Assembly: GCA_964016885.1 (NCBI GenBank)
Contig: OZ024745.1
Location: 53,196,001 to 53,260,000, forward strand
DNA length: 64,000 bases
Direction: 5' to 3'
Source of the DNA: Eledone cirrhosa
Lineage: Eukaryota
Of the stretch, positions 10,245 through 64,000 are shown piece after piece. The translations under genes were made by a program, and so were the position numbers. The number at the start of each line of letters is the position of its first letter. Positions within the stretch are counted from its first letter, which is position 1. The notes under the pieces were generated by a model. The model worked only from the letters and a program-made list of their open reading frames with translations, did no database searches and was not told the origin of the DNA.

Positions 10245-10460
10245 GCTAAAAGTTCTATTTAAAATTGTTGGGATACAATAAGTAAATATTTTTATAACTG
10301 ATATAAAGCACTCGACAAATATTTGGAGTAGATATACGATATTAATAAATGGAAACTATATTTATAAAACCATATTTATTTCATTATACATATTTCAGGG
10401 ATACCAAATTAAATTATGGTATGCCTTCATCAGACAAAGTACAATATATAACAGTTTTAC
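10245..10460 (-). mobile_element. PLE pseudo-LTR fragment with hammerhead motif (same family as 41105-41530)
   Basis: Aligns with 41105-41310. The minus strand reads CTGATGA-aggcatacc...ggtatccct-GAAA-tatgta-TA at about 10378-10440. Confidence 0.75.
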
Positions 10461-13874: not shown

Positions 13875-16800
13875 TAATACGAGACCAGGATTTCCGACAC
13901 GCGCGCACTAGCCCCCATTTTCGACGACTATCAGATCTTTGCATCTGTTAGCCGGCCGGGAATGGGAGGCGGGGTGGCAGTGCTGTTTAGGAAAGGCCTG
14001 GATCTCGAGGTAAGGTCGATCTTCCGGGACCCAGGCGGGAAGTTTGTGGTCCTGGACGTGAACAATAACGAAGGTGGTGCCTTTAGACTGGTGGCCGTCT
14101 ATGCTCCTACTGGGGCAGGACGGCCGGACTTCTTTAGACGCCTGGAAGCCTTTCTGGGTACGTCTCGCTCTTTACTGTTAGCAGGGGGGCTGGAACGGCA
14201 TCTTAGACGCATGCTGGGACTGTGTGGGAGTATCCGATAGGAGCGGGGGGTGCAAAAGCCTCAAGAACCTGATCAGCCAGTTCCAACTGTCTGACAGGTA
14301 CCGACTAGATTTCCCTAATGCGCCAGTGTGGACCTAGGCTAACCGCATAGGGTCATCTAGATCGTATTTAGACAGGATATTCATTAGGAAAATAGACAGA
14401 AATAGTGTAAGCTGTCCACGTTTTGAAACGGTTGCCTATTCAGATCACAAGTTTGTGATCTGTATGGTCGACCTGGATAAGACGCGTAGGTTAGGACCTG
14501 GTTACTGGAAGTTAAACATGTCATTTCCGGCACGTAAGGCTTACAGGGACCAGGTCAACAATTTAGTTAAGAAAAAGTTGACAGGGGGAGTCGTCAACAA
14601 TAGATGGTGGGGGGGGGGGCTCTCAAAAGAGAGATTAGAGTAATGTCGATAGAGTTTAGCAAAGAAGTAGCGTTAGAGAAAAATAGAAAGGAGGGGGAGT
14701 TGGTAGATAAGTTAGACGAGGCTATTGGTCGTGGCATTGCAACTGACGTGCTAGCGGCGAGAATGGCATTAGACTATTTCTTCAATGCGAAACACGAAGA
14801 TTGCATTGTCAGAGCTAAGGCGCGTGCTCTGAGAAACGAGGGAACCTAAGCTGTTCGATGGGCCCGCGTGGCAGAAGCGCAGCGTGGTAATAAAACCACG
14901 ATTCGGTCTTTGAGGGGCCGAGACGGGCACGAGCTGAGCGATTCCAAGGGGATGTGTGAGGCCTTTCGCCAACATTTTGCTCGGTTGTTCGGGGGAAGTG
15001 GCGGGTCAGAGATGGTGGCGGACTTCAGTTCCTACCTCGATGGCTTGCCGCAACTCTCGACAGCTGACGCTGGGCGCTGCGAAAGCCCAATTACTTCAGC
15101 CGAGATTCAGGATGCCCTTGTCGGCTGCATGAGGCGCAAGTCACCCGGTTTGGATGGTCTGCCCTACGAGCTTTACGTAAATATGCCAGACTTGTTCTCC
15201 AATCTCCTCGAAGCCCTCTACTGCAACTGGCATCAAAACGGGAGTATTCCCAGTTCTGTGAGCCGGAGCGTAGTGACGCTGATAAGGAAAGACGAGAACA
15301 AGAGGGACACATTAGACAATTTCATAACTCTGCTCAACACAGAGTTTAAGATTTTGGCCAGGGTGTTAGCGAAGAGGTTGGCGCTTGTCGTTGGGTATTT
15401 GGTTGGGGAGGCGCAAACTTGCGCAATACCAACCAGGTCCATACACGACAAGCTCCACCTAATGCGATACATCATCGAGAGGGTAGGGTGTAAGCCTGGC
15501 TTCGGTGGGGCTCTGATCAATTTAGATCAATCGAAAGCATTCGATAGGGTCGACCATCGGTACCTGGAGGCTGTCCTCAAGGCGGCTGGCTTCGGCCCCG
15601 TCTTCAGAAGCTGGATAGCTGCAATGCACAGCGGCACCTGCTCAATGGTCAAAATTAATGGCCACCTCTCGGAACCGTTTCAGGTCTCCCGATCGGTCCG
15701 TCAAGGGTGCCCTCTCTCCTCCCTTCTGTACCTATTGACCCTCGAGCCTTTACTGTGGAAGCTGGAGCTGTTGCAGGGCATCCCGCTCGAACTGGACGCG
15801 GAAAGGCTGTGTCTGCTTATGCGGACGACATCACCGTGATGGTGTCGGACACCTCAGAAATCGAGGTGGTCGGCAACTTATTGGAGGAATATGAAAGGTT
15901 GACGGGAGCAAAACTTAACCCGGAAAAGTCGGTGGGCTTGCAACTCGGCACCTGGAGAGGCAAGTCCATGCCGTCCAACAGCGTCGTTATGCGCTGGACG
16001 GACGGACCGGTAAAGTGGCTAGGGGTTTGGTTTGGGCCAGACCTCCAGGTGGATAAGAATTGGAACGAGGTGACGGGCAGGGTAGCCAGTCTCACCCAGA
16101 AATGGGCTGGGATGAAGCTATCACTGAAAGGTCGGGCGGAGGTGGCGAACGCGTACATCGCGTCCGTCATCTACTACCGTCTGACCGTCGTCCCTTGCCC
16201 CCGTTCGCCCCTCGCCATCTTGGAGCGGCTCCTCTTCAAATTCTTGTGGAGGGGTCAGGTTCCGCTGGTGAGGCGGTCCATCCGCTGCCAGTACCCTCTA
16301 CGTGGAGGGTTGGGCATGCCGTGGCTAATGATGCGCAGGCACGCGCTGAGGCTGCAGCATCTCAAGATATTCTGCCTAAACGGTGAACAAGTGCGGTCGC
16401 CGTTTGTCAGACGGGCCTTTCCTCAGCTCGTTTCTTTGAGTGAGCTGCAGTCCTGGGTGAAGAAGAGACCCAGACTGGGTGACTGGCATCTGGAATGTTG
16501 CCAGGCACTCACTGCCCTCTACCAGGCGGGCAATGCGGTCAGTGGAACTTCCACTCTCGAGTTCTATAGAGGATTAGTGGTGGGAAAGTGCGACTACGCA
16601 CTCGGAGAGGCTCTGGGAGTCAACGAAGTCGAACTAACCAGTCTGTACCGGAGGACTTTTGAGCCGAGGACGATGGATAATTTCCAAAAATCCTTCGCTT
16701 GGCAGTGCTACCGGGGGCACTGCCGGTTCGAGATAAACTCTACAGGCACGGAAGTGCTGTCAGACGGACCTGCCCGAGATGCGCGCAGAGCGACGAAACC

Positions 16801-17465
16801 GTTCTGCACGCACTCGTCCAGTGTCCGTGCATTACTGACTTGTGGAGTTATGTTGAACAGCTGTTGTCGCGTGTAGAACGGATCCGGCTATCGGCCGAGT
16901 CCATAGTGAAAATCAACCCGCCGCCTTCTTTCGGCCAGGAAGGGCAGGAAATTTTCCTCTGTCTGGTGGCAGTAGCGAAAGAGGTTGTATGGTGGACGAG
17001 GTTGAAAGGACTGAAGACAGACACTTTTCTCTTCGGCCAATCCCTCGTCAACTTTTTCAAGTTTCACTTGGAAAGGAAGGTGAGGGTGGAGAGAGAAGTT
17101 CTGCCCCCCAGTACATTTGCTGAAAGGTGGGTGAATGTGGCGAGAATGGCCCGTGTGAGTGGGCCTACTCTGGTCATGCGGCTGTAGGTAGGGAAATTTG
17201 AAGAGGAGAGGGGTGCCCTTCCAGGGTGCTCTCGAAGCGTCGGGTCGTTCAGGACTGGTGGGGTACCTGAGCGAACCCTAGGTGGTCATCTCCCCTATTG
17301 GGGAATTTTTTCTTGTAATTTTATTGTTACTTTATTGTTACTTTGTTATTGTTACGTTGTTATTGTTATTCATATTGTTTACTCGATTTTTCTGTAAAAC
17401 CCCACTGTCCCAGTCTTTTGTATTGTCCCCTATATGTCGGCCCTTGTGGCTAATAAATGAAATCA
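13875..17465 (+). mobile_element. L1/Tx1-clade LINE ORF2 (APE endonuclease, RT, CCHC zinc finger) plus 3' UTR; 5'-truncated and frameshifted
   Basis: Consecutive ORF pieces give GGGVAVL, VAVYAP, GPGYWKLN, KSPGLDGLPYE, LDQSKAFDRVDH, VRQGCPLS, AYADD and CPRC..DETVLHALVQC. AATAAA lies near 17452. The block is GC-rich against an AT-rich background. Confidence 0.93.
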
Positions 17466-18887: not shown

Positions 18888-18889
<2 letters not shown>

Positions 18890-18972
18890 TCAGTCAATGG
18901 CAACATTGAGGACCGAATAAATTAGATTACCGATATAGAAGCGAAAAGCGAAAACCAACCAAACAGTGAGTG

Positions 18973-19012
<40 letters not shown>

Positions 19013-19129
19013 CAGCGATGAATTAGTTTTGCGAGGTTTTTTATATGAAATCGTGTGTCGAAACAAATATTGTTATACTTGGGGAGGGTCATATTTGTGT
19101 AATATTGCCAGAATTAATAACAGAACACA

Positions 19130-19133
<4 letters not shown>
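18888..19133. mobile_element. Split, inverted pieces of a pLTR-like repeat (family also at 49990-50130 and 61240-61399)
   Basis: 18888-18973 is the reverse complement of the distal part of 61300-61399. 19066-19133 matches 61240-61309. A (TA)n tract separates the two. Confidence 0.75.
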
Positions 19134-19171: not shown

Positions 19172-19370
19172 AACGAAGGAGGTGTGGTTGGGAACCAGAT
19201 GGACCATAACCCACCAGAGTACACATTACTTACGGTAGTAGAGTGGGTAATAGGAAAATGTTTTACCCCGACGGCAGAGCTCAAGCCTTTCCGACGGCTA
19301 TTTCTGGATGAGTTCAGAAATAGCCTTCGAAACGGCTTGAGATCTGCCGTAGGAGTCAAACATTTTCCTA
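19172..19370. mobile_element. Fold-back insertion, family F1 copy A (arms of about 55 bp plus a tail of about 77 nt)
   Basis: ATAGGAAAATG...GGCTATTTCTG and CAGAAATAGCC...CATTTTCCTAT form inverted arms, flanked by (TA)n. Confidence 0.85.
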
Positions 19371-19396
19371 TATATATATCTATATATGATTATAGA

Positions 19397-20749: not shown

Positions 20750-21081
20750 GAATTAGTATATCTACTAACATATATATACAGATGCATACTTATGCCAGCA
20801 AATACATAGGTTTTGTCTTAGTAACTTTGTGGTTCAATGCATGGGGATGCAGAACAATAATATGAAAGACGTAAAATAAGAAAGTTATAAAAATTAACTT
20901 ACTTACTAAAATTTCACTCCTTGGTTGTTTACTTCTCGAGTTTTAGGGATTCAAACTCACACACACACACACACGCACTCAAACAGACATCCTCAAGGAA
21001 GTGACGTAATGCAGACAGACAGATATTATAAGGGAGTGAAATTTTAGTAAGTTAATTTTTATAATTTTCTTATTTTACGGC

Positions 21082-21090
<9 letters not shown>
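20750..21090. mobile_element. Fold-back insertion, family F2 (same family as 49368-49961), with a captured loop
   Basis: Arms at about 20860-20920 and 21033-21090 are inverted. The tail 20750-20860 matches 49368-49480. The loop 20921-21032 matches 20014-20117. Confidence 0.85.
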
Positions 21091-27059: not shown

Positions 27060-27100
<41 letters not shown>

Positions 27101-27108
<8 letters not shown>

Positions 27109-27531
27109 TAAACGGAATAGAAAATGCTGACAAATTGTTCACAGTTGAAAAATGGTTTAATTAGGAATAAAAGAGTATTAGTAATTGTATGGGTTAGTAT
27201 TCAGTTGTGGTTTTAAGTTTTTAAGTTTTTACCGGTTGCGCATTTCTAAATGCTTTTCAAAAATAATTTTGAGATAGAGTGTCCGTGTTGTTTGCTCTGA
27301 TCAGAGCAAACAACACGGACACTCTATCTCAAAATTATTTTTGAAAAGCATTTAGAAATGCGCAACCGGTAAAAACTTAAAAACTTAAAACCACAACTGA
27401 ATACTAACCCATACAATTACTAATACTCTTTTATTCCTAATTAAACCATTTTTCAACTGTGAACAATTTGTCAGCATTTTCTATTCCGTTTACCAATATA
27501 TAATAACTTGTGTGTTACACCTCTATTCTTT

Positions 27532-27870: not shown

Positions 27871-28041
27871 AACGAAGGAAATGTGGTAAGGAACCAGGTG
27901 GACCATAACGCACCAAAGTACTCAATACTTGAGGTAGTAGAGTGGGTAATAGGAACCAGTAAGACCCCGACAGCTGAGCTCAAGCCGTTTCGAATTAGCC
28001 GTCGAAACGGCTTGAGCTCAGCTGTCGGGATCTTACTGGTT

Positions 28042-28045
<4 letters not shown>
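27871..28045. mobile_element. Fold-back insertion, family F1 copy B
   Basis: Tail plus left arm are essentially identical to 40896-41017, but the junction differs (GTTTCGA|ATTAGCCGTCGAAAC). Confidence 0.88.
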
Positions 28046-28077
<32 letters not shown>

Positions 28078-29483: not shown

Positions 29484-29854
29484 TTCTACACAAACAGGAA
29501 AATCACTTCCAGTGCCAGACTGATCGATACTAAATATAATAGTATAAAGGAATTTATACTATAATACAAGTTACTTGCTGGCTTTTTGTATCAATAAAAC
29601 CAACTTCTTTCTACACATACATAAACAAAAACTCAGACATATACATAGACGCAAACATGCACGCTTGTATAATATATATATAAATATATATATATATATA
29701 CATACAGTGAGAGACAGACAGTCAGGGGTTGGGTGTGTGCGTGTCTGTGTTTGCACACAAAGACGGGCATACAAGCAATAGCCGAACAACAAAATACGAT
29801 GCTATATTAACTGTGTCACTATGTATCTATCTATGTATCTATTTATATATCTAT

Positions 29855-32239
29855 ATTTCGGCCGCTGAGATAGAGGACGTGCTGAGCCAATGCGGCAAAC
29901 GCAAATCCCCGGGTCTCGATGGTCTTCCTTACGAATTATATCTAGCTATGCCGGACTTGTTCCCCGATCTCCTCGAGGCGGTCTACTGCAACTGGCAACA
30001 GAACGGGAGAATTCCCTGTACTGTGACCAAGGGCGTAGTCACGCTAGTGAGGAAGGACGAGAACAAGGGGGACGAAATAAGTAACTTCAGGCCCATAACA
30101 CTGCTAAATACAGAGTTACAGATTTTGGCCAAGGTGCTAGCAAAGAGGTTGGCGCTTGTCGTGGGCAACCTGGTGGGAGATGCGCAGACATGCGCTATCC
30201 CGTCCAGGTCCATCCATGACAACCTCCACCTCATGCGATACATCATAGAGAGGGTTGGGAACGAACCCGGCTTTGGTGGGGCTCTGATCAACTTGGATCA
30301 ATCTAAGGCGTTCGATAGGGTCGACCATGGTTACCTGGATGCGGTGCTAGCGGCGGCAGGCTTCGGACCCGTTTTCAGGGGCTGGATCACTGCTATGCAC
30401 AGCAGCCGCATCTGCTCTAGGGTCAAGGTGAACGGCTACCTCTCGGAGCCGTTCAAAATCGCGCGGTCCATCCGACAAGGGTGCCCTCTCTCCTCCCTTC
30501 TGTATGTGTTGACTCTCGAGCCACTACTGCGGAAGTTGGAGTTGTTGCAGGGCATCCCTTTGGAACCGGGATTGCGGAAAGCGGTGTCGGCCTACGCCGA
30601 TGACGTGACAGTAATGGTGTCGACGGCCTCCGAAATCGAGGCGGTCGGCACCTTACTGGAGGAGTACGAAAAGTTCACAGGGGCTAAGCTGAACCGGGAC
30701 AAGTCGATCGGTTTGCAACTCGGCACGTGGAGGGGCAGACCGATGCCCTCCGATGGCGTCGTCGGACGCTGGACGGAGGGCCCGGTGAAGTTGCTCGGGG
30801 TCTGGTTCGGACCGGACCTCCAGGTGGAGAAAAACTGGGCGGAGGTTACGAACAGGGTGTTTGCACTGACCCAGAAGTGGGCCAGTTGCAAACTATCCCT
30901 GAAAGGTCGGGCAGAGGTGGCGAACACCTACATAGCGTCCGTCATCTACTACCGCCTGACCGTAGTGCCCTGCCCAAGGGAAACCCTCACCAAGATGGAG
31001 CGCGCGCTCTTCCAATTCCTTTGGAAGAGGCGGGCTCCTATGGTGAGGAGATCCATCTGCTGTCAACACCCTTCGAAAGGAGGGCTGGGGATGCCATGGC
31101 TAATGATGCGTAAACACGCATTAAGGCTACGGCACCTCTACGTATTCCTCACCGGACAACCGGTGTGGGCCTCGTTTGTGAGACGAACCTTTCCCAGACT
31201 CGTCTCACTCACCGAGCTGCAATCCTGGGTCAAGCAAAGACCGAGAAAACTGGGCGCCTGGCACACTGAGTGTGCCCAGGCGCCCACCGCCCTCTGGCAG
31301 GCGGATCCGGTTATCAGTGGAGACTCCACCGCAACATTCTATAGAGGGCTGGTACGCAGCAGGTGCGACGACGCCCTCGGAGAAGCCCTAGACATGGAGG
31401 AGGACGAACTGGCCAGCCTGTTCGGTAGGACATTCAGCCCGGGACCTATGGACAACTTCCAGAAGTCCCTGGCCTGGCAGTGCTACCGAGGGGCTTTACC
31501 CGTTCGAGAAAGGCTCTACAGACACGGGCGCCCGGGTAGGGACCCCGCCAAAAAGATCTGTCCCAGATGCGTGTGCGACGAGGAAACCGTTGCACACGCA
31601 TTGGTACACTGCTCGGGCGTAGCCGATCTGTGGGGCTATGTCGAACAACTGCTGTCAAGGGTGGGACCGATCCGGTTGACCACCGAGTCTATTGTAATGA
31701 TCAAGCCGCCTCCCCCCTTCAAAGATGAAGCAGAGGCGGTGTTTCTGTGCGTAATAGCCATGGCGAAAGAGGTTGTATGGTGGACGCGTCTGAAAGGACT
31801 GAGGTCGGGCACCTTTCTCTCTGGCCAACAACTGGTCCGTTTCTTCCGATATCATTTCGGAAGAAGGATCAGGATGGAGAGAGAGGTGCTGCACCCCAGC
31901 CGTTTCTATGAAAGATGGGTGAAAGTGGCGAGAATGGCCCGTGTGAATGGGCCTTCACTCTACATCAGACTATAGGTGAGGAAGATGAAAGACCAAGGGA
32001 GCACCCCTTCTCTGTGCTCCTGAGGAGTAGGGTTGCACACTTTTTTCGGGGGTGTGTGCGACCCCCCAAGGCGCCTCCTCTCTATTGAGGATTTTGTTAA
32101 AAATTTTATTTTTTGTTATATCTTATTTTATTTTTATATTTTGTTATTGCCTCCTCCTTATTGAGGACGCCTTTTTGTGTAAACTCCCCCCTTTGTACTT
32201 GTCCCACTTTTGATGCCCTAGTGGCAAATAAAAGAAATA
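29855..32239 (+). mobile_element. 5'-truncated L1/Tx1-clade LINE with 19-bp TSD
   Basis: TATCTATTTATATATCTAT appears at 29836-29854 and 32240-32258. AATAAA lies near 32227. The 3' UTR resembles that of the 13.9-kb copy. Confidence 0.93.
29858..31975 (+). CDS. Uninterrupted RT plus C-terminal CCHC zinc-finger frame of the L1/Tx1 element (no native start; endonuclease lost)
   Basis: KSPGLDG, NFRPITLLN, DQSKAFDRVDH, IRQGCPLS, AYADD, CPRC..EETVAHALVHC; about 705 codons without a stop. Confidence 0.88.
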   Translation, partial: SAAEIEDVLSQCGKRKSPGLDGLPYELYLAMPDLFPDLLEAVYCNWQQNGRIPCTVTKGVVTLVRKDENKGDEISNFRPITLLNTELQILAKVLAKRLALVVGNLVGDAQTCAIPSRSIHDNLHLMRYIIERVGNEPGFGGALINLDQSKAFDRVDHGYLDAVLAAAGFGPVFRGWITAMHSSRICSRVKVNGYLSEPFKIARSIRQGCPLSSLLYVLTLEPLLRKLELLQGIPLEPGLRKAVSAYADDVTVMVSTASEIEAVGTLLEEYEKFTGAKLNRDKSIGLQLGTWRGRPMPSDGVVGRWTEGPVKLLGVWFGPDLQVEKNWAEVTNRVFALTQKWASCKLSLKGRAEVANTYIASVIYYRLTVVPCPRETLTKMERALFQFLWKRRAPMVRRSICCQHPSKGGLGMPWLMMRKHALRLRHLYVFLTGQPVWASFVRRTFPRLVSLTELQSWVKQRPRKLGAWHTECAQAPTALWQADPVISGDSTATFYRGLVRSRCDDALGEALDMEEDELASLFGRTFSPGPMDNFQKSLAWQCYRGALPVRERLYRHGRPGRDPAKKICPRCVCDEETVAHALVHCSGVADLWGYVEQLLSRVGPIRLTTESIVMIKPPPPFKDEAEAVFLCVIAMAKEVVWWTRLKGLRSGTFLSGQQLVRFFRYHFGRRIRMEREVLHPSRFYERWVKVARMARVNGPSLYIRL

Positions 32240-33585: not shown

Positions 33586-33683
33586 TTAGAAAGTGAGGTT
33601 TTTTTTACAAAATGAAAAGTAACCGAGGTGTCCTACACGAGTGAAAGTATAAAGAAAAAGAGATGAAATCGAAAATGCAACTG

Positions 33684-35563
33684 TAATTAAGGAAGCGGAC
33701 AAGGGAAGTACTGTTGTCATTATGGAGGCTGAAAAATATAAAAATTCTATGTTCTCTCTCTTACAAAATACTAATTACTATGAAAGAGTAAAAAACTACC
33801 AGCAATCAAAAATAATGACCAAATTAAACACACTGATTTATCGATACCAGGAAGACCTAACTAAAAAGGAACGCGATTATTTAACACATTTTGAATACAA
33901 AACCAGCAACCTTTCCGGACTTCCGAAGATCCACAAATGTAAAATAATCAACGATGCCTGTAAACAATCCACCTCAGCCTGCGTGAACACACAATACCCC
34001 ACAGACCTTAAATTAAGACCAATTGTAGCGGGCCCACAATGTGAAACACACAGATTGAGCAACTTTATAGACATACTACTGAAACCAATACTGAAACACA
34101 TACCAAGCCTTGTAAGAGACGATCTGGACCTCTTAAACCACCTCCCCAAACATGTCAACAACGACACTATTATTGTGTCTTTCGATGTAGTGAATCTCTA
34201 CACAACGATCCCACACCAATACGGACTAGAAGCAATAGGATTCTGGCTAGAGAAATATCCCAATGAGATACCTGACAGAATAGAAAAAAGCTTCATTACC
34301 GAGGGATTAAAATTCATCCTACAGAACAACTTTTTTGATTTCGATGGCAATACTTACAAGCAAATATCGGGGACTGCGATGGGCACAAAAGCCGCTCCAA
34401 CTTATGCCAACTTAGTCATGGCATACTTAGAAGTCCAGATATATGAACAGTCCAAATCAAATTACGGATTGAACTTCCACAAATATTTATCAGAGAATTG
34501 GAAACACTAATTGGATGATTGCCTCATTCTTTGGTCCCACACACTCGACCAACTGAAGGATTTCAAAAACTTAATAAACGGCATCAATAACCACATCCAA
34601 TTCACAATGGAATACAGCCAAGATCAACTCCCATTTCTGGACATCTTAATCACAAAAAAAGACACAAATATCGAAACTGACATACACTACAAACCAACAG
34701 ATTCCAAACAATATCTGCTATTCACCTCCAACCATCCAAAGCACACGAAGACGAACATTCCTTTTAACCTAGCAAGAAGAATTTGCACAATTATCTCCAA
34801 TTATGAAACGCGAAATAAAAGACTTCAAGAATTAAAGGAAATTCTACTTGAGAGAGAGTACCCACTATTACTAATAAATAATGGAATAGAAAGGGCTAAA
34901 GCAATAGGCATTGATGAATTACGGAAACAGAAACAAATTCAAGGTACGTCCAATATTCTATCATATATCTCAACACACAACCCAAGAAATGCGGAAGCTT
35001 ACAACACTATTCACAATAACATCCCACTACTAAAACAAAACCCAAGAATGAAAAAAGCCCTTGAAACACACAAAATAATCAAAAGCAAAAGACAACCAAA
35101 ATCACTGAAAACATTACTCACCAATGCCAAATTACCTACCACAAACCCACAACCAAGTATCAAAAAATGTGGTCGCTCTAATTGTGGAACCTGCACTCAC
35201 CTCATTGAAGGCAACACGTATACATTTAAATCAGGACAAAATTTGACTGTAAAAAATCACTTCACTTGCTCATCAAAAAATCTAATTTATGCCATTAAAT
35301 GTAAAGGATGCAATGAAGATTATATAGGACAAACTAAACTCACACTCAGAAACAGAATGACAGTTCATCGCCAACAATTACGAGATCCAACCACGAGACA
35401 GATACCACTAAGTGCACATCTAGACATTTGCGCAAGTAATAAGACACCCAAATTCCAAGTCTTCCCATTTTACCTTTGTGCTAACAATACAACAGAACAA
35501 ATGCGAATAAATAAGGAAAATATGTTTATTCAAAAATATAGACCAACATTAAATAAGGTTTAA
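33684..35563 (+). pseudogene. PLE reverse transcriptase plus GIY-YIG endonuclease ORF with one in-frame stop
   Basis: IKEADKG, GLPKIHK, LRPIV, SFDVVNLYT, GTAMGT, KH*LDD (TAA at 34508-34510 in the catalytic YxDD motif), CGRSNCGTC, NLIYAIKC..C..DYIGQT, RMTVH. Confidence 0.93.
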
Positions 35564-36038
35564 TATACATTATGTCAACACCACAATATGACATACACAC
35601 ACATAACACCTTCTACTTTAGAAAATAAAAACCCGAACTAAATAAACCTTAACATACGTTTGCACTGGCAATACAACAGCAAACACGAAAAAGTAAGGAA
35701 AATATGTTCATTCAAAAATATTCCTACTAAAGGAATCACTTTCCTACACACACACATACACACACACACAATATATATATATATATATATATTCTCTTCA
35801 TCTTAACATGCTAACCATACTCCCACACACATAACACCCATACACACACATAACAACCCCCACACCTACAACTCCCTCCTCATTTCTACTAATAGAACCA
35901 CTTTCCTACACACATATATATATACACACACAAAATATATATTCTCTCCATCTTAACATACTCGCACACACACACATAACACCCATATACACACACAACT
36001 CCCTCCCCCATCTCTACTAATAGAATCATCTTCCAATA

Positions 36039-36081
<43 letters not shown>

Positions 36082-36602
36082 ACACACAAGCACACAAATA
36101 AACATACATATCTTCAGTCTCAATAGAAAATCTGAACTCTGACACCCCGGCGAGCTGGCCATATTCACTGAACCAGAACATTTCTCCCAATCCCTTTTCT
36201 CTTGACCACTATCTCTCCATTGTCATAACATTCACTATAAAGACTACAGAATAGTTTTCCAAATAAGGGCGCAAAAATGTAATAAAAACTTGTTCACGTG
36301 ACAGCCAAATTTCATTTATAACCAACCCCAAAAAAGCCTTCGTGAGCCTCCTTTTTTCAAGTAAAAAGAAATTCAAAAACTCATATATAAAAAAACAACC
36401 TGTGACAACCCCCCCCCCCCCCCTCTTATTTGAAGAACTATTGTAACGCGAACTGGCGCGAAATTTATTATAATTATTGACTAACCAATCAAATTACTTC
36501 TCGAAAAACCTGGAATTTCGAGCCACTTTTTCCATATAAAGCAAGTAACATTCAGAGACCAACCAGATGTGAGAAAAACCACAGACCCTCCATCTCAACT
36601 CA

Positions 36603-36640
36603 CCTTTTGAAAAGCAGAAGAACTGCGAAACCGGTAAAGG
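36603..36640 (+). ncRNA. Minimal type-I hammerhead ribozyme motif, U3-A8 variant
   Basis: cctt-TTGAAAA-gcag(aagaa)ctgc-GAAA-ccgg-TA-aagg: stem I cctt/aagg, stem II gcag/ctgc, palindromic stem III. Confidence 0.7.
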
Positions 36641-36709
36641 AACCAAATAAATATATATATTTTTAAAAAAAATAAGACTTCAGTTGCATTTTCGATTTCA
36701 TCTCTTTTT

Positions 36710-36778
<69 letters not shown>

Positions 36779-39040: not shown

Positions 39041-39235
39041 AGCAAAGGAATTGTGGTAAGGAACCAGATGGACCATAACGCACCAGAGTACTCAATACTT
39101 AGGGTAGTAGAATGGGAAATAGGAAAAAGTATGACCCCGACGGCAGAGCTCAAGCCGTTTCGACGGCTATTTCTCAGTCCATACATAGCCGTCGAAATGG
39201 CTTGAGCTCTGCCGTCGGGGTCATACTTTTTCCTA
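39041..39235. mobile_element. Fold-back insertion, family F1 copy C
   Basis: Inverted arms ATAGGAAAAAGTATGACCCCGACGGCAGAGCTCAAGCC... with a spacer of about 16 nt and a tail on the left. Confidence 0.88.
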
Positions 39236-39284
39236 TATATATATATAAATATATGTTATATATATTATCGATCATCCAACTATG

Positions 39285-40897: not shown

Positions 40898-41099
40898 CGA
40901 AGGAAATGTGGTAAGGAACCAGGTGGACCATAACGCACCAAAGTACTCAATACTTGAGGTAGTAGAGTGGGTAATAGGAACCAGTAAGACCCCGACAGCT
41001 GAGCTCAAGCCGTTTCGACGGCTAATTCTGGACTCCAGAGTCCAGAATTAGCCGTCGAAACGGCTTGAGCTCAGCTGTCGGGGTCTTACTGGTTCCTAT
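40896..41099. mobile_element. Fold-back insertion, family F1 copy D (perfect arms of about 62 bp, 2-nt spacer)
   Basis: Centre CTGGACTC-CA-GAGTCCAG near 41036; tail 40896-40973. Confidence 0.9.
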
Positions 41100-41104
41100 A
41101 TATA

Positions 41105-41520
41105 AATAGGGATATTTAATTTGTTGGAAATTCAACAAATATAAATGTTTATAACTGATTCAGAGCACACGTCAGTTTTCTGGAGTAAATATACAATATT
41201 AAATAAATGGAAAATATATTTATAAAACCATATTTATTCTATTATATATATTTCAAGGGTACCAAAAACTCTGGTACGCTTTCATCAGATAAAATACAAA
41301 ATGTATTTTATAAATTTTGACATAGCCAAGGAAACATACCTTATCAGTTGAATTTTCCTTCGATTCAACTGATAAGGTATGTTTCCTTGGCTATGTCAAA
41401 ATATATAAAACACACTTTGTATTTTATCTGATGAAAGCGTACCAAAGTTTTTGGTACCCTTGAAATATATATAATAGAATAAATATGGTTTTATAAATAT
41501 AGTTTCCATGTATTTAGTAT

Positions 41521-41530
<10 letters not shown>
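41105..41530. mobile_element. Fold-back PLE pLTR with a hammerhead in each arm
   Basis: Arms at about 41190-41353 and 41363-41530 with several mismatches, a 9-nt spacer, and a tail 41105-41190 on the left. Confidence 0.88.
41421..41480 (+). ncRNA. Minimal type-I hammerhead ribozyme motif (mirror copy 41236-41295 on minus)
   Basis: attttat-CTGATGA-aagcgtacc...ggtaccctt-GAAA-tatata-TA-atagaat. Confidence 0.8.
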
Positions 41531-41556
<26 letters not shown>

Positions 41557-42307: not shown

Positions 42308-42310
<3 letters not shown>

Positions 42311-43184
42311 ATAATAATAAATTTGAAGACTAAAATCCAAAGAGGGCTCGATAAGGATAAATATATATCAAATATATAAGAACCGTAGAGCAAATATTTA
42401 TTAAAATAACAGATTAAAGTTTAAGCAAAGAATCGCTGCTTTCACCCTTAACGGGATCTTCTGAAACTAACAAAGTCAATCTGTGAACGCAGAAGTAAAT
42501 ATTTCAATAAACGTTGCAACCGGAGGAAGACTGGAAGACGATACTTTGGTTCGTGGAAACGTTCCCTGGCAAAGAACGGGAAAAAACGAATATAATACGT
42601 GCGTGTATATGTATACCTATGGCGAGTGTTTCCGCGTATGCTTGTGTATGTACGTATATGGATGCGTGTATGTATTTATTTAATTTCAATTACCTCTAAT
42701 TTATTTACTTTATTCTTAACTCTGAAGCCGTGAATCATTCGGTTTCCTAGTTAGAATTTTAGTCTACGACTTCAGTTATACCATTTACGTGGTTTTGTCT
42801 TTGCGTGCAATTGTTCTCACCGCTCCACATATGACGTATTATCTTTCGTTTTTTTTTCGTTCATTGCCAGAGAACGTCTCTATGAACCACCTAAGAGAAC
42901 ATGAGTCTACGACTTCTTTTATACCATAAACGTGGTTTTGTCTTTGCGTGTAATTGTTTTTCACCGCTCCAAACAATGACGTATTATATTCGTTTTTTCC
43001 CGTTCTCTGCCAGGGAACGTTTCCACGAACCAAAGTATCGTCTTCCTGTTTTCCTCCGGTTGCAACGTTTTTTGAAATATTTACTTCTGCGTTCACAGAT
43101 TGACTTTGTTAGTTTCAGAAGATCCCGTTAAGGGTGAAAGCAGCGATTCTTTGCTTAAACTTTAATCTGTTATTTTAATAAATA
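42308..43184. mobile_element. Fold-back insertion, family F3 (also 60587-61240)
   Basis: 42395-42600 is the reverse complement of 42979-43184. The tail 42308-42394 is on the left. An internal 143-bp tandem duplication starts at 42762 and 42905. Confidence 0.88.
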
Positions 43185-43473
43185 TATATATATATATGTG
43201 TGTGGATGAACTTATATTTCCCCAATTCATGTATTTATCGTGGAAAGAACTATTTTCATGTTATATTCTCACCTCGAAACTCACATACATATGTATCAAC
43301 AAAAATACATTTGAAAAACTCGTCTTAATTTTCCTACGTCTGTCTGACTTTTAAATTTATGTTTTCTCGATGTGCCATTCATACGTCTCTCCCAACGTTG
43401 TGTTGCCTCATCTTGGAAATCATATATAAGAAATGTTTGTGTGTGTGTGTATGTTTCTATCTGTTTGCGTGTA

Positions 43474-49367: not shown

Positions 49368-49957
49368 AATTAGTATATCTACCAACATATATATACAGAT
49401 GTATACCTATGCAAGTAAATATATAGTTTTGTCTTAGTAACTTTGTGGTTCAATGCAAGGGGATGCAGAACAATTATATGAAAAACGTAAAATAAGAAAA
49501 TTATAGTAATTAGCTTACTTACTTGCATTTCACTCCAACTAATTAGTTTCTGAAAGGGAATATACATAGTCTCCAAATGGAGATCATGGAGAAACCTTTT
49601 CTTCATCAGGGAGTCATTCTCAGCTAAGATACCTGGCGATGCGCGGACACAGGGAACTTATACAAAAATAATTCAGTGATTGATTCTTTTGAATTTGCCA
49701 CCGACCAAGAAGGCGGTGATTTTTTCAGTGTCTTGGAATTTAGTCCCCGCTTGCTCTTTTCCATCCACTGAATTATTTTTTGTATAAGTTCCTTGTGTCC
49801 GCGCATCGCCAGGTATCTTAGCGAGAATGACTCCCTGATGAAGAACAGGTTTCTCCATTATCTCCATTTGGAGACTATGTATATTCCCTTTCAAAAACTA
49901 ATTAGTTGGAGTGAAATTTAAGTAAGTAAGCTAATTACTATAATTTTCTTATTTTAC

Positions 49958-49961
<4 letters not shown>
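49368..49961. mobile_element. Fold-back PLE pLTR, family F2, hammerhead in each arm
   Basis: Arms at about 49482-49678 and 49766-49961, spacer of about 87 nt, tail 49368-49481, (TA)n flanks. Confidence 0.9.
49532..49614 (-). ncRNA. Type-I hammerhead motif with a long stem-II insert (mirror 49830-49912 has GAAA changed to AAAA)
   Basis: Minus strand: actcc-CTGATGA-agaa...ttca-GAAA-ctaattag-TT-ggagt. Confidence 0.75.
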
Positions 49962-50233
<272 letters not shown>

Positions 50234-50239
50234 TATATA

Positions 50240-53303
<3,064 letters not shown>

Positions 53304-60533: not shown

Positions 60534-60586
<53 letters not shown>

Positions 60587-60591
<5 letters not shown>

Positions 60592-61240
60592 AAAATAACA
60601 GATTAAAGTTTAAGCAAAGAATCGCTGCTTTCACCCTTAACGGGATCTTCTGAAACTAACAAAGTCAATCTGTAAACGCAGAACTGGATATTTCAAAAAA
60701 CGTTACAACCGAAGGAAGATAGAAAGACGATACTTTGGTTCGTGGAAACGTTCGCTGGCTAAGAACGGGAAAAAACGAATATAATACGTCATTAATAGGA
60801 GCGGTGAAAAACAATTACGCGCAAAGACAGAACCACGTTTATGGTATAAAAGAGGTAGTAGACTAATGTTCTCTAGGTGGTGCATAGAGACGTTTTCTGG
60901 CAATGAACGAAAAAAACGAAGATAATACGTCATATCTGGAGCGTGGAGAACAATAGCAAGCAAAGACAAAACCACGTAAATGGTATAGCAGAACTCGTAG
61001 ACTAAATTCAAACTAGGAGACCAAATGAATCTCCGCTACGGAGTTAAGAACAAAGTAAATAAATACAATACAGAAGTAATAGAAATAAATAAATACATAC
61101 ACGCAAACAAAAACGTACATACACAAGCATACGCAAAAACTTACCATAGGTAAACAAAACCAGGCACATATAAATATGTGCGTGTGTGTAAGCGTGTATA
61201 CAAATAAATAAATAATTATATAAACGTATATAAATAAATA
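60587..61240 (-). mobile_element. Family F3 repeat, tail-less arm
   Basis: Reverse complement of about 42600-43184; ends at (TA)n at the same terminal position. Confidence 0.85.
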
Positions 61241-61399
61241 AATATTGTTATATTTGGGGAGGGTCATATTTGCGTAATATTGCCAGAATTAATAACAGAA
61301 CACACTCACTGTTTGGTTGGTTTTCGCTTCTCGCTGTCTTTTATATATATATATCTGCGATCTAACTTACTCGGTCCTCAATGTTGCCATTGACTGACC
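61240..61399 (+). mobile_element. pLTR-like 3' end with tail (family of 18888-19133 and 49990-50132)
   Basis: TTGGGGAGGGTCATATTTG...CTCGGTCCTCAATGTTGCCATTGACTGACC. Confidence 0.8.
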
Positions 61400-61435
61400 G
61401 GCGGTCAAAAATAATACAGATACAATATAGACAAA

Positions 61436-61496
61436 CACATATATATATAGTTTACATAAATCTTTCGTTGCACATCTGCAACATCGTCAGTGGTGT
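61436..61496 (-). ncRNA. Hammerhead-like motif in the PLE 3' region
   Basis: Minus strand: acacca-CTGACGA-t-gttgca(gatg)tgcaac-GAAA-gatttatgtaaac-TA, then (TA)n. The stem I partner is disrupted. Confidence 0.55.
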
Positions 61497-61763
61497 TATA
61501 TTCATTGTTCCTCCTGTTGTGTTGTATGTCTACGCCATTTTTTTTTGTTCAGTCTGTCTATATATTTATTTATTTATTTGCTTGTTTGTTTATCTTATTT
61601 TATTTTGTCTTCTTTGCGCATGCGTTTGCGTGTGTGTATAGTGTTATGTGTGATGTGTGACTAGTGTGTATAGTGTTGTGTCTGCTGGGTGACTAGTGTG
61701 TGTTTATGTGCTTGTGTATGTATTTATTTATCTTATTTTATTTAATTTAATTTACTTATTTAT

Positions 61764-63050
61764 TTATACTTCTCTTAGGTCAGTGTTGTTTGTTTGGGTG
61801 TTGTTGTTGTTCCACTCATTCTTTCTGTTTAGCTGTGGTCTTCTAATTTCTATTTCACTGGCCTCTCTGATTTGCCTATCTGCTGGGTCATTCCTATGTT
61901 TAGATATTATTCTAATTTCTATGTTGTCTATGTTACCGTCATGATGTTGTCTAGCATGTTCGTATAGTACTGACCCGTTTTTTCGTCCTTTTAGTTCCCC
62001 CCAGTGTTGGTCTATCCTTTCACCTATGCTACGAGCTGTCTCACCTATGTATGTTGTTGTCGTGTTTCTGCAAGTACCCTCTGTACATCTTATGCTATAG
62101 ACTACGTTTCTAGTTTTACAGTTTATCCGGGGGTTCACCTTACATATGATACATTTCCTATTGGTACAGTGGGTTTTCTTAAAAGGGTAGGTTTTGCTGA
62201 TCAGGGATTTTATGGTGGTTCCTGGCTTTTCTACCACCTTTATTTTTAAGTGGGTCTTTCTCAGGGCCTTTCTACACTGGTTAGCTAATTTCCCTCCAGG
62301 GGTGGCGTCCACAAACATGACACTCTGATATCTCTGGTTGTCGTACCATGATGTGGCCTTCCCTATCTTATGTCTAGCCCTATCTAAGCTATTCCATGAT
62401 TTGCTCCTGTATAGTGGGCAAATTCCTTTCATGTCCAGTTCTATGAGGGTCTTATACTTTTCCATGGCTCCTTCGTATACTCTGACTCTGTCTCTTTGGT
62501 TGTAGCCAGAGAACTGCATGCGGTTGATGAAGTGTTGGATGTGTCCTTCCATTTCTGTTGGGTCGCACATGCTGGACACATTCTTCATCACTCGTACCAA
62601 ATCTGCGATCAGAATATTAAACTTAGCACTACTGGACATTGCTGAGTTTTTGAGTATCAGGTATTTGGAGGCCATGGGTTTAGCATAGTGTGAGTGGAGA
62701 ATTTGGGCTCTCTCGTCTATAGTGTTAATCCAGAGTTCTGTGTCTAATACAGGTAGTCTATTGTTAGGGTGTTTGGAAGGGAAGTCTATAGTTACAGTTA
62801 TACTCTGGTGTATGGAATTAGCTATCTGCTGGATGCTTTCCATCGTGCTACGTTCTAAATCAAACTTGTTAGTGCTCTCTAGTGGGGGTGTTCTTATAAC
62901 TATATTGATATCGTCTACATAACGAGAGTACATGATGAGGTCTATGGAGCTTTCATTAAGGAGATCTTTAAGTCTCCTTTCCCACCATACCATGAAAAGG
63001 TTGGCAACATCGCCAGCTATGCTGACGCCGATGGCTGCTCCCTCATTTTC
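61764..63050 (-). CDS. 5'-truncated PLE RT (from motif B') plus GIY-YIG endonuclease, open frame
   Basis: EGAAIG..VANLFM, YSRYVDD, LPVLD, CTNRKCIIC, NVVYSIRC..C..YIGETARSIGERIDQH, RQIREA. Confidence 0.9.
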   Translation of the reverse strand, partial: ENEGAAIGVSIAGDVANLFMVWWERRLKDLLNESSIDLIMYSRYVDDINIVIRTPPLESTNKFDLERSTMESIQQIANSIHQSITVTIDFPSKHPNNRLPVLDTELWINTIDERAQILHSHYAKPMASKYLILKNSAMSSSAKFNILIADLVRVMKNVSSMCDPTEMEGHIQHFINRMQFSGYNQRDRVRVYEGAMEKYKTLIELDMKGICPLYRSKSWNSLDRARHKIGKATSWYDNQRYQSVMFVDATPGGKLANQCRKALRKTHLKIKVVEKPGTTIKSLISKTYPFKKTHCTNRKCIICKVNPRINCKTRNVVYSIRCTEGTCRNTTTTYIGETARSIGERIDQHWGELKGRKNGSVLYEHARQHHDGNIDNIEIRIISKHRNDPADRQIREASEIEIRRPQLNRKNEWNNNNTQTNNTDLREV

Positions 63051-63060
63051 CTCATTTTGA

Positions 63061-64000
63061 AATGAGGGAGCAGCCATCGGCGTCAGCATAGCTGGCGATG
63101 TTGCCAACCTTTTCATGGTATGGTGGGAAAGGAGACTTAAAGATCTCCTTAATGAAAGCTCCATAGACCTCATCATGTACTCTCGTTATGTAGACGATAT
63201 CAATATAGTTATAAGAACACCCCCACTAGAGAGCACTAACAAGTTTGATTTAGAACGTAGCACGATGGAAAGCATCCAGCAGATAGCTAATTCCATACAC
63301 CAGAGTATAACTGTAACTATAGACTTCCCTTCCAAACACCCTAACAATAGACTACCTGTATTAGACACAGAACTCTGGATTAACACTATAGACGAGAGAG
63401 CCCAAATTCTCCACTCACACTATGCTAAACCCATGGCCTCCAAATACCTGATACTCAAAAACTCAGCAATGTCCAGTAGTGCTAAGTTTAATATTCTGAT
63501 CGCAGATTTGGTACGAGTGATGAAGAATGTGTCCAGCATGTGCGACCCAACAGAAATGGAAGGACACATCCAACACTTCATCAACCGCATGCAGTTCTCT
63601 GGCTACAACCAAAGAGACAGAGTCAGAGTATACGAAGGAGCCATGGAAAAGTATAAGACCCTCATAGAACTGGACATGAAAGGAATTTGCCCACTATACA
63701 GGAGCAAATCATGGAATAGCTTAGATAGGGCTAGACATAAGATAGGGAAGGCCACATCATGGTACGACAACCAGAGATATCAGAGTGTCATGTTTGTGGA
63801 CGCCACCCCTGGAGGGAAATTAGCTAACCAGTGTAGAAAGGCCCTGAGAAAGACCCACTTAAAAATAAAGGTGGTAGAAAAGCCAGGAACCACCATAAAA
63901 TCCCTGATCAGCAAAACCTACCCTTTTAAGAAAACCCACTGTACCAATAGGAAATGTATCATATGTAAGGTGAACCCCCGGATAAACTGTAAAACTAGAA
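63061..64000 (+). CDS. Mirror copy of the same PLE RT/GIY-YIG frame, open at the window edge and absent from the ORF track
   Basis: AAT GAG GGA GCA GCC ATC GGC... translates as NEGAAIG..., continuing as the mirror of the minus-strand ORF. Confidence 0.88.

Follow-up and report, generated by a model that had tools for sequence, protein, structure and literature searches.

The window analysed here is a 64,000-nucleotide stretch of Eledone cirrhosa DNA (positions 53,196,001 to 53,260,000 of contig OZ024745.1, assembly GCA_964016885.1), with a GC content of 36% and an abundance of microsatellites. Its right edge is occupied by an inverted repeat whose arms (62108-63048 and 63060-64000, 941 nt each) face each other across an 11-nt spacer (63049-63059) and carry 0 mismatches, so that the 95% upper bound on their divergence is 0.32%. 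Among the 5,743 inverted pairs listed in the window, this pair is the longest and the sole long one that is not a microsatellite. The first-pass annotation had described a near-perfect mirror of at least 941 bp; its extent stands, and the arms proved to be perfect. As that annotation also stated, two open frames diverge from the palindrome's centre: the minus-strand frame runs from 63059 to a stop at 61764 and encodes 431 amino acids (P0001), and the plus-strand frame (63061-63999, 313 amino acids) is still open at the window's end.

Table 1. Features of the palindromic insertion and its sibling copy (positions in the window).
Feature	Position	Strand	Remarks
Sibling non-coding fold-back	42308..43185	.	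arms ~205 and ~590 nt, 98% identical
(TA)n microsatellite, likely insertion target, adjoining the left arm	60537..60587	.	1 nt between arm end and TA run
Most likely 3' UTR/pseudo-LTR of the left arm	60588..61763	-	1.18 kb
139-bp tandem repeat within the 3' region	60748..61005	.	1.8 copies; also in the sibling copy, 42761-43032
Segment shared with short copies	61243..61400	-	copies at 49994-50135, 18889-18975 and 19013-19133
Hammerhead-ribozyme-like core	61463..61490	-	CUGACGA, one extra nucleotide, 6-bp stem II closed by G-C, GAAA; stems I/III not resolved
Left-arm ORF remnant	61764..63059	-	431 aa; RT motif B' (GAAIG), C (YVDD), E, thumb, linker, GIY-YIG endonuclease
Linker and GIY-YIG endonuclease	61827..62168	-	CX4CxxC-x7-C linker; CCHH and R/H/E/N residues
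Left-arm part mirrored inside the window	62108..63048	-	inverted-repeat search
Junction	63041..63059	.	tandem 9-mer duplication plus one base
Right arm, identical ORF remnant	63060..64000	+	313 aa; ends at the window edge

At the joint, the 9-mer CCTCATTTT occurs twice in tandem (63041-63049 and 63050-63058), followed by one G; this is the short reiteration that had been noticed in the spacer. With one 9-mer unit removed, the arms meet across a 2-nt gap, and their 5' ends at the joint differ by 1-2 nt. Truncation of both arms in RT motif B' had been read correctly, and the distance of about 10 nt between the two ends shrinks to these 1-2 nt. Because the Gln ahead of motif B' is nearly invariant, the last spacer base is probably the next base of the parental element; on the strength of this one base, all arm ends would therefore fall within 2 nt. 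The left-arm truncation can be placed at 63049, since contig 16 of sequencing run X4 matches 62788-63049 with 1 difference and then carries 559 nt that do not align. Beyond one G-T pair, the joint offers no fold-back stem. Among the joints listed in sequencing-run contigs (15 of 43), no independent contig spans the junction; because the runs probably come from other individuals and contigs drop rare variants, they neither confirm nor refute it.

The 3' region and its outer boundary

Inverted or tandem pseudo-LTRs (pLTRs) with a one-sided tail mark the Penelope-like elements (PLEs) that carry an endonuclease (EN+); here we find the inverted pair, and on the sibling copy the tail. In relatives L002 and L004, direct repeats at the termini extend into the beginning of the ORF, in the manner of PLE pLTRs. 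L002 (1-1248, 5063-6055) also holds a 1,632-codon frame with Thr/Asn/Ser/Ala-rich repeats near the N-terminus, comparable to the Asn-rich inserts of rotifer Penelope elements. Within the 3' region, the hammerhead-like core (61490-61463) combines an extra nucleotide, a G10.1-C11.1 pair and a long stem II, all features typical of PLE motifs, and a similar core lies ~100 nt past the ORF in two of the six relative loci fetched (L004 and L006). An ATG at 61390 (minus strand), with a GTAAGT 20 nt later, stands 100-120 nt after the core. They could serve the pLTR as ORF start and splice donor, respectively; our guess is that they mark a retained 5' intron.

Across the window, we counted 9 hammerhead cores, where 20 shuffles averaged 1.1; four of the nine sit in the paired arms of two fold-backs. 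Rfam returned 0 matches at gathering score over the window, and its 7 weak matches on 60588-61800 at E up to 10, none of them a hammerhead, were treated as noise. The 140-bp tandem repeats were considered as hammerhead dimers and rejected, the core motif being absent there. Minimal type I hammerhead motifs with a palindromic stem III occur in both arms of the fold-backs at 41186-41533 and 50232-50672, with further copies at 10433 (-) and 42177 (+), all below the Rfam threshold.

Three positions are candidates for the outer end of the left arm, namely 61408, 61243 and 60588, with mirror positions at 64700, 64865 and 65520. We consider 60588 the probable end, because it abuts a TA run, as does one arm in 10 of the 11 other hand-delimited fold-backs (there a run of (TA)5 or longer, the other arm lying at least 38 nt from one; the exception, at 40974, abuts only a short TA stretch). 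The same end is favoured by the 88% identity of 60588-61171 to the long arm of the sibling fold-back (compared as 42394-43197), and by X4 and X6 depth that resembles the depth over the ORF, with single X1 contigs joining the region to the ORF side. Against it stand the recurrence of 61243-61400 in three short copies with other ends, an X4 depth of almost nil at 61346-61429, a loose X6 end at 61407, and the presence in the window of nested insertion at TA stretches. The right arm is predicted to end near 65,520, followed by a tail of ~90 nt, and the earlier forecast that it would run to about 64700 most likely falls short. The extra tail that had been foreseen on one arm is to be expected from the one-sided tails of neighbouring fold-backs; the right arm's end lies outside the window. 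At 18889-19133, the segment shared with the element's 3' region appears to be split, its halves opposed around a TA run, and one half carries a 55-nt tail that turns up again in run X1 as a loose end.

The encoded protein and its reverse transcriptase lineage

The arms encode the C-terminal 40% of a Penelope-like RT/GIY-YIG protein. This identity, proposed at first reading, is borne out by the motifs, by homologue matches and by a profile alignment to Neptune PLEs. As in EN+ PLEs, the 431-residue product joins motif B', thumb and EN in a single frame. Its EN residues (C325, C330, H352, H368/H373, R348, E399 and N411) are mostly invariant or 90% conserved in the alignment of relatives, with the exception of the second Cys. 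When it was compared with 56 longer proteins, the best match, at 64%, came from Octopus vulgaris, which together with the low GC content and the many microsatellites of the window points to a cephalopod host. The remnant itself has no Pfam match, and among 17 aligned relatives RVT_1 and GIY-YIG were each recognised in 4. Since full-length relatives mostly measure 1,030-1,100 amino acids, some 600 N-terminal residues, motif A included, are missing. Judged by its sequence, this copy is dead: lacking them, it cannot mobilise itself. The suggestion that the locus links small fold-backs to an autonomous enzyme is therefore unsupported on this count and on another, as the family is shared with only one of the 11 other fold-back regions compared (42394-43197), the rest belonging to other families.

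The relatives have a distinctive architecture. Motifs A and B', where measurable (106 of 204), lie 126-151 residues apart (median 132), a region absent from this copy; DKS (59) dominates in place of DKG; and the linker ahead of the EN has a median of 7 residues (measurable in 129 of 204). In a set of 120 Neptune sequences, the A-to-B' spacing is 60-64 residues (59 measurable), DKG occurs in 51, and the linker has a median of 24 residues (23-27; 100 measurable). In hhalign, the family profile aligned with Neptune over the full RT-thumb length (probability 100, E 2.9e-40, 20% profile identity), leaving ~70 unmatched residues between A and B', at the position of the telomerase IFD. A quick tree was built from the first 28 relatives of 740-1,300 amino acids with measurable motifs, the present remnant and every third Neptune match of ranks 3-60. 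It set the 29 family rows apart from the 20 Neptune rows on a long branch with support 100, within a comparison of these two groups that has no outgroup. The placement of the RT in a PLE phylogeny, which had been called for, thus reaches as far as this split, the tree holding the family and Neptune only.

Comparison with the named clades yields a partial resemblance to several. Neptune shares the C-terminal EN, the TA-run target and a homologous RT-thumb throughout, and membership in it is rejected by the A-to-B' spacing, the DKS motif, the short linker and the separate branch. Nematis shares a C-terminal GIY-YIG domain with CCHH and a short CX2-5CxxC linker, and the 7 residues between CxxC and the next C recur in three Nematis rows of Fig. 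S2. By contrast, the A-to-B' spacing in the C. remanei row is 63 residues by hand count. The absence of an IFD and the DKG-type motif that accompany the short linker in Nematis were not found in the relatives, where these features were measured: the family has DKS, LRKDHK, RPVCGA and GxxIG where Nematis has DKG/DKR, YKTHK, RPII and GLAMG, and its named hosts are not nematodes. Hydra, our first guess from the TA target, likewise occurs in aquatic invertebrates, targets (TA)n and has a C-terminal EN and a KDHK motif. It lacks CCHH and the IFD and has DKT and CxCX5C, whereas the family has CCHH, DKS, CX4CxxC and the long insertion, on which grounds we rejected it. Penelope/Poseidon was rejected because a CX4CxxC zinc-finger linker is present between RT and EN, and Naiad/Chlamys because the family's EN is C-terminal. 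Naiad and Chlamys, with their N-terminal EN and mostly without hammerheads, nevertheless resemble the family in having extra sequence between A and B'. Against ~132 residues in the family, that spacing is, by hand counts, ~118 in human TERT and ~85 in Naiad-Bfor (Fig. S1). In position and length, the insertion fits the TERT IFD and is a candidate counterpart of it; a PDB sequence search returned 3 matches at E up to 1, with no TERT among them.

A profile search retrieved 1,508 representatives at E up to 1e-30. Named hosts of the relatives are Octopus vulgaris and the jellyfish Sanderia malayensis, alongside many unnamed marine contigs; clusters in the ESM Atlas carry only the labels hypothetical, RVT_1 and HTH_animal, and point, with few records, to Ctenophora and Arthropoda. 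Taken together, these data suggest that the RT lineage is widespread and likely fits none of the eight named Penelope groups. The combination of an IFD-sized insertion, a C-terminal EN, DKS and a Nematis-like linker appears to be unmatched in the consulted portions of Craig et al. 2021 (PMC8557442), whose supplement gave 0 matches to the family motifs save one unrelated DKSG, in an alignment whose gaps could hide a motif. A 2026 preprint still lists eight PLE clades (10.64898/2026.07.22.740005). The literature searched, to which Repbase, Dfam, Arkhipova 2006 and subscription papers did not belong, yielded no paper naming such a clade. That the clade is unnamed, set apart by its motifs and by a tree in which Neptune is the sole comparison, is close to a coin toss, and there are about even odds that a name already exists. 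Craig et al. tie the IFD to PLEs with an N-terminal EN (PMC8557442). If our reading is true, a large C-terminal-EN lineage with a TERT-sized insertion would change the PLE tree and bear on the relationship between PLEs and telomerase; it would also explain unannotated repeats, such as the present one with its lack of Pfam matches.

Neighbouring fold-backs and family size

An exhaustive scan for fold-backs with 12 exact pairs at the centre and a spacer of at most 30 nt found 7 in the 64 kb, the 941-nt palindrome included, with spacers of 0-14 nt. Its mirror-repeat control gave 42 matches, more than the 7 true fold-backs and probably microsatellites passing the filter; the control is uninformative and was not used as support. 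The sibling fold-back (42308-43185) has a junction overlap of up to 6 nt and a tail of ~87-92 nt on its short arm. The tail likewise sits on the short arm in the other asymmetric fold-back that can be oriented (33586-36713; n = 2, ends set by hand).

The window holds several further elements. The copy at 33586-36713 is a second PLE, of Neptune type (DKG, long linker), with both ends in long TA runs, a 36-nt inverted 3' end and a 62-nt tail at the 5' side; its ORF remnant (33653-35563) has one in-frame stop ahead of motif C. A small fold-back family is represented by four copies (19250-19371, 27949-28046, 39119-39236 and 40974-41099) whose truncation points all differ and which carry the same 77-87-nt tail on one arm only. 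A perfect, spacer-free palindrome with 202-nt arms and 0 mismatches lies at 27099-27502, flanked by TA runs on both sides and with a 38-nt tail at the right. The fold-backs at 49475-49969 and 20860-21089 belong to another family and have a common left tail, and the middle of the 20860 copy is unlike either arm of the other. Two LINE copies with endonuclease/RT-like frames (13878-17187 and 29711-31975, the second a 754-residue open frame) are, by eye, presumably L1/Tx1-like. No host gene was apparent by eye among ORFs of at least 110 amino acids in 1-60000; the insertion may lie within an intron.

The family to which the palindrome belongs appears to be large. Of the 24 sequencing runs listed, 20 contain the palindrome stretch or part of it, and 9 contain at least half of its words; no RNA run is listed among those that contain it, which carries no information on expression. 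In run X1, 27,752 contigs fall on the stretch, 7,546 of them at 99% identity or more and 10,162 below 95%. Summed contig depth was not taken as copy number, and run X22, which consists of raw reads, was set aside (21 reads only, on AT-rich low-complexity sequence). Going by the coding of the runs, near-identical members probably exist in several organisms. At least half of the sampled words occur in runs coded as six or seven organisms, so that near-identical copies are shared either by close species or by labels. Both arms share a synonymous base (63012/63096) from which most X1 depth, a low-depth X4 contig and both X6 contigs differ, which argues that the two arms came from one source. As to the earlier claim of a very young insertion from an active family, youth is in line with 0/941 mismatches and an uninterrupted 431-residue frame, and the family is large; its retrotransposition activity is suggested indirectly, by the intact frame, the identical arms and the many near-identical contigs.

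Formation of the palindrome

The structure is very probably a real, single PLE insertion. We favour a formation in which each target strand primed a cDNA on one and the same broken RNA and the two products were joined end to end, and give it a rough probability of 0.48, just short of one in two. A full-length source copy elsewhere would supply RT and GIY-YIG nuclease as an RNP, and the nuclease would cleave the TA run on both strands. One of these would prime at an inner start site, yielding the tail-less left arm, and the other at an outer site, yielding the tailed right arm and displacing the first cDNA; both cDNAs would run out at the 5' end of their common RNA template. They would then be linked, with almost no homology and a slip of 9 nt, by template jumping of the RT or by end joining of the host, and host repair would fill in. 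Alternatively, the 9-nt duplication may have arisen later at the unstable centre, since a break at the centre of a palindrome can yield a short duplication. The resulting copy is inactive from the outset.

The identity of the arms, their shared synonymous base and their equal truncation all speak for a single template, and in a family this diverse the lack of any mismatch counts for double priming on one RNA. The two-cDNA model is further favoured because an anole PLE, in vitro, cuts the target on both strands, extends each of them and starts RT at two sites, which match and define the tail (PMC11167929). Strand displacement on one RNA is without PLE precedent in the literature consulted, and the model is limited by resting on two asymmetric cases whose missing tail could have been lost by later deletion. 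An origin of the arms from different RNAs, as two cDNAs or insertions later equalised by gene conversion or cruciform repair, is in line with the extendability of both target strands (PMC11167929) and the abundance of the family in contigs. Independent truncations are nonetheless unlikely given arm ends within 2 nt and 7 fold-backs with 0-14-nt spacers in 64 kb: different RNAs leave unexplained why truncation points coincide to this degree, and do so across fold-backs of several families, and we regard this origin as most improbable.

Two rivals keep a single template. For such junctions, Arkhipova et al. 2013 proposed that an antisense template primes itself (PMC3846280): the antisense transcript would fold at its 3' end, RT would extend it into a hairpin reaching the tail, and the hairpin would integrate. 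This would account for arms that are identical and equally truncated, for retained introns and for a tail carried by the short arm (PMC3846280), and the junction overlap of the sibling copy agrees with it. However, the 941-nt palindrome lacks a fold-back stem beyond its G-T pair, and the anole PLE in vitro uses a template that extends across the pLTR-ORF junction and primes from target DNA (PMC11167929); we consider self-priming unlikely. Snap-back of the first-strand cDNA, in which the RT reaches the end of the broken RNA, slips by 9 nt and copies its own cDNA back to the other target end, is the simplest route to identical arms and short spacers. Yet a copied arm cannot hold what its template arm lacks, and a longer, tail-less first strand could not supply the tail found on the short arm in both oriented asymmetric copies, which makes snap-back quite unlikely. 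If long-read sequencing, amplification or assembly had made an ordinary truncated PLE copy look like a fold-back, this would fit the perfect identity, the symmetry up to the window's end and the lack of a spanning contig among the joints listed. We think such an artefact very unlikely: the centre coincides with the element's 5' truncation, beyond which the X4 contig goes on, the spacer is a templated duplication, the other fold-backs stop at TA runs and have unrelated flanks and one-sided tails, and one of them is itself free of mismatches over 202 nt.

Double priming thus remains our preferred account, and the window invites a direct census: with ~10 such insertions per 64 kb, the arm that bears the tail and the subfamily variants would separate the models. 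If transcribed through, the palindrome would give a hairpin of at least 0.94 kb, probably ~2.4 kb, and a role as dsRNA and ADAR substrate is plausible. Heavy editing of Penelope repeats is described for lizard, and octopus stands out for an exceptionally large proportion of loci that form near-perfect dsRNA and for its hyper-editing (PMC5625713); PLE fold-backs may be one source. At its widest, the proposal is of a ninth PLE clade, with a C-terminal GIY-YIG and a telomerase-sized fingers insertion, whose hosts would include cephalopods, cnidarians, ctenophores and arthropods. In octopus-like genomes, where its amplification would be enormous, double priming on one RNA would place perfect hairpins of kilobase length at TA runs, and these would feed the high A-to-I hyper-editing of such animals. 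As a whole, we hold this to be doubtful.

The palindrome on its own is a clean but ordinary PLE example. Its head-to-head layout is an already known PLE architecture: 5'-truncated copies in inverted orientation, with a tail at one end only, are characteristic of these elements (Craig et al. 2021, PMC8557442, Fig. 2 legend), and the origin of such head-to-head repeats is still treated as an open question (PMC8557442 section 15; PMC3846280 Discussion). With published inverted insertions it shares the head-to-head orientation, a palindromic junction, an expected tail at one end, a microsatellite target and a hammerhead-like motif in the 3' repeat (PMC8557442, PMC3846280). Published tails measure 30-40 bp, in contrast to the ~90 nt of the sibling fold-back (PMC8557442, PMC3846280). 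Unlike in the published cases, the inverted copy here extends deep into the ORF and the two arms share one truncation point; the coding palindrome spans at least 1.9 kb (predicted, ~5 kb).

A second comparison is with L1, whose 5' inversions arise by twin priming, in which both target strands prime and the cDNA ends are joined with microhomology. The two-cDNA model resembles twin priming in that both strands prime and the cDNA ends are joined; in L1 inversions, however, a non-overlapping upstream piece is reversed, whereas here the same 3' sequence is duplicated.
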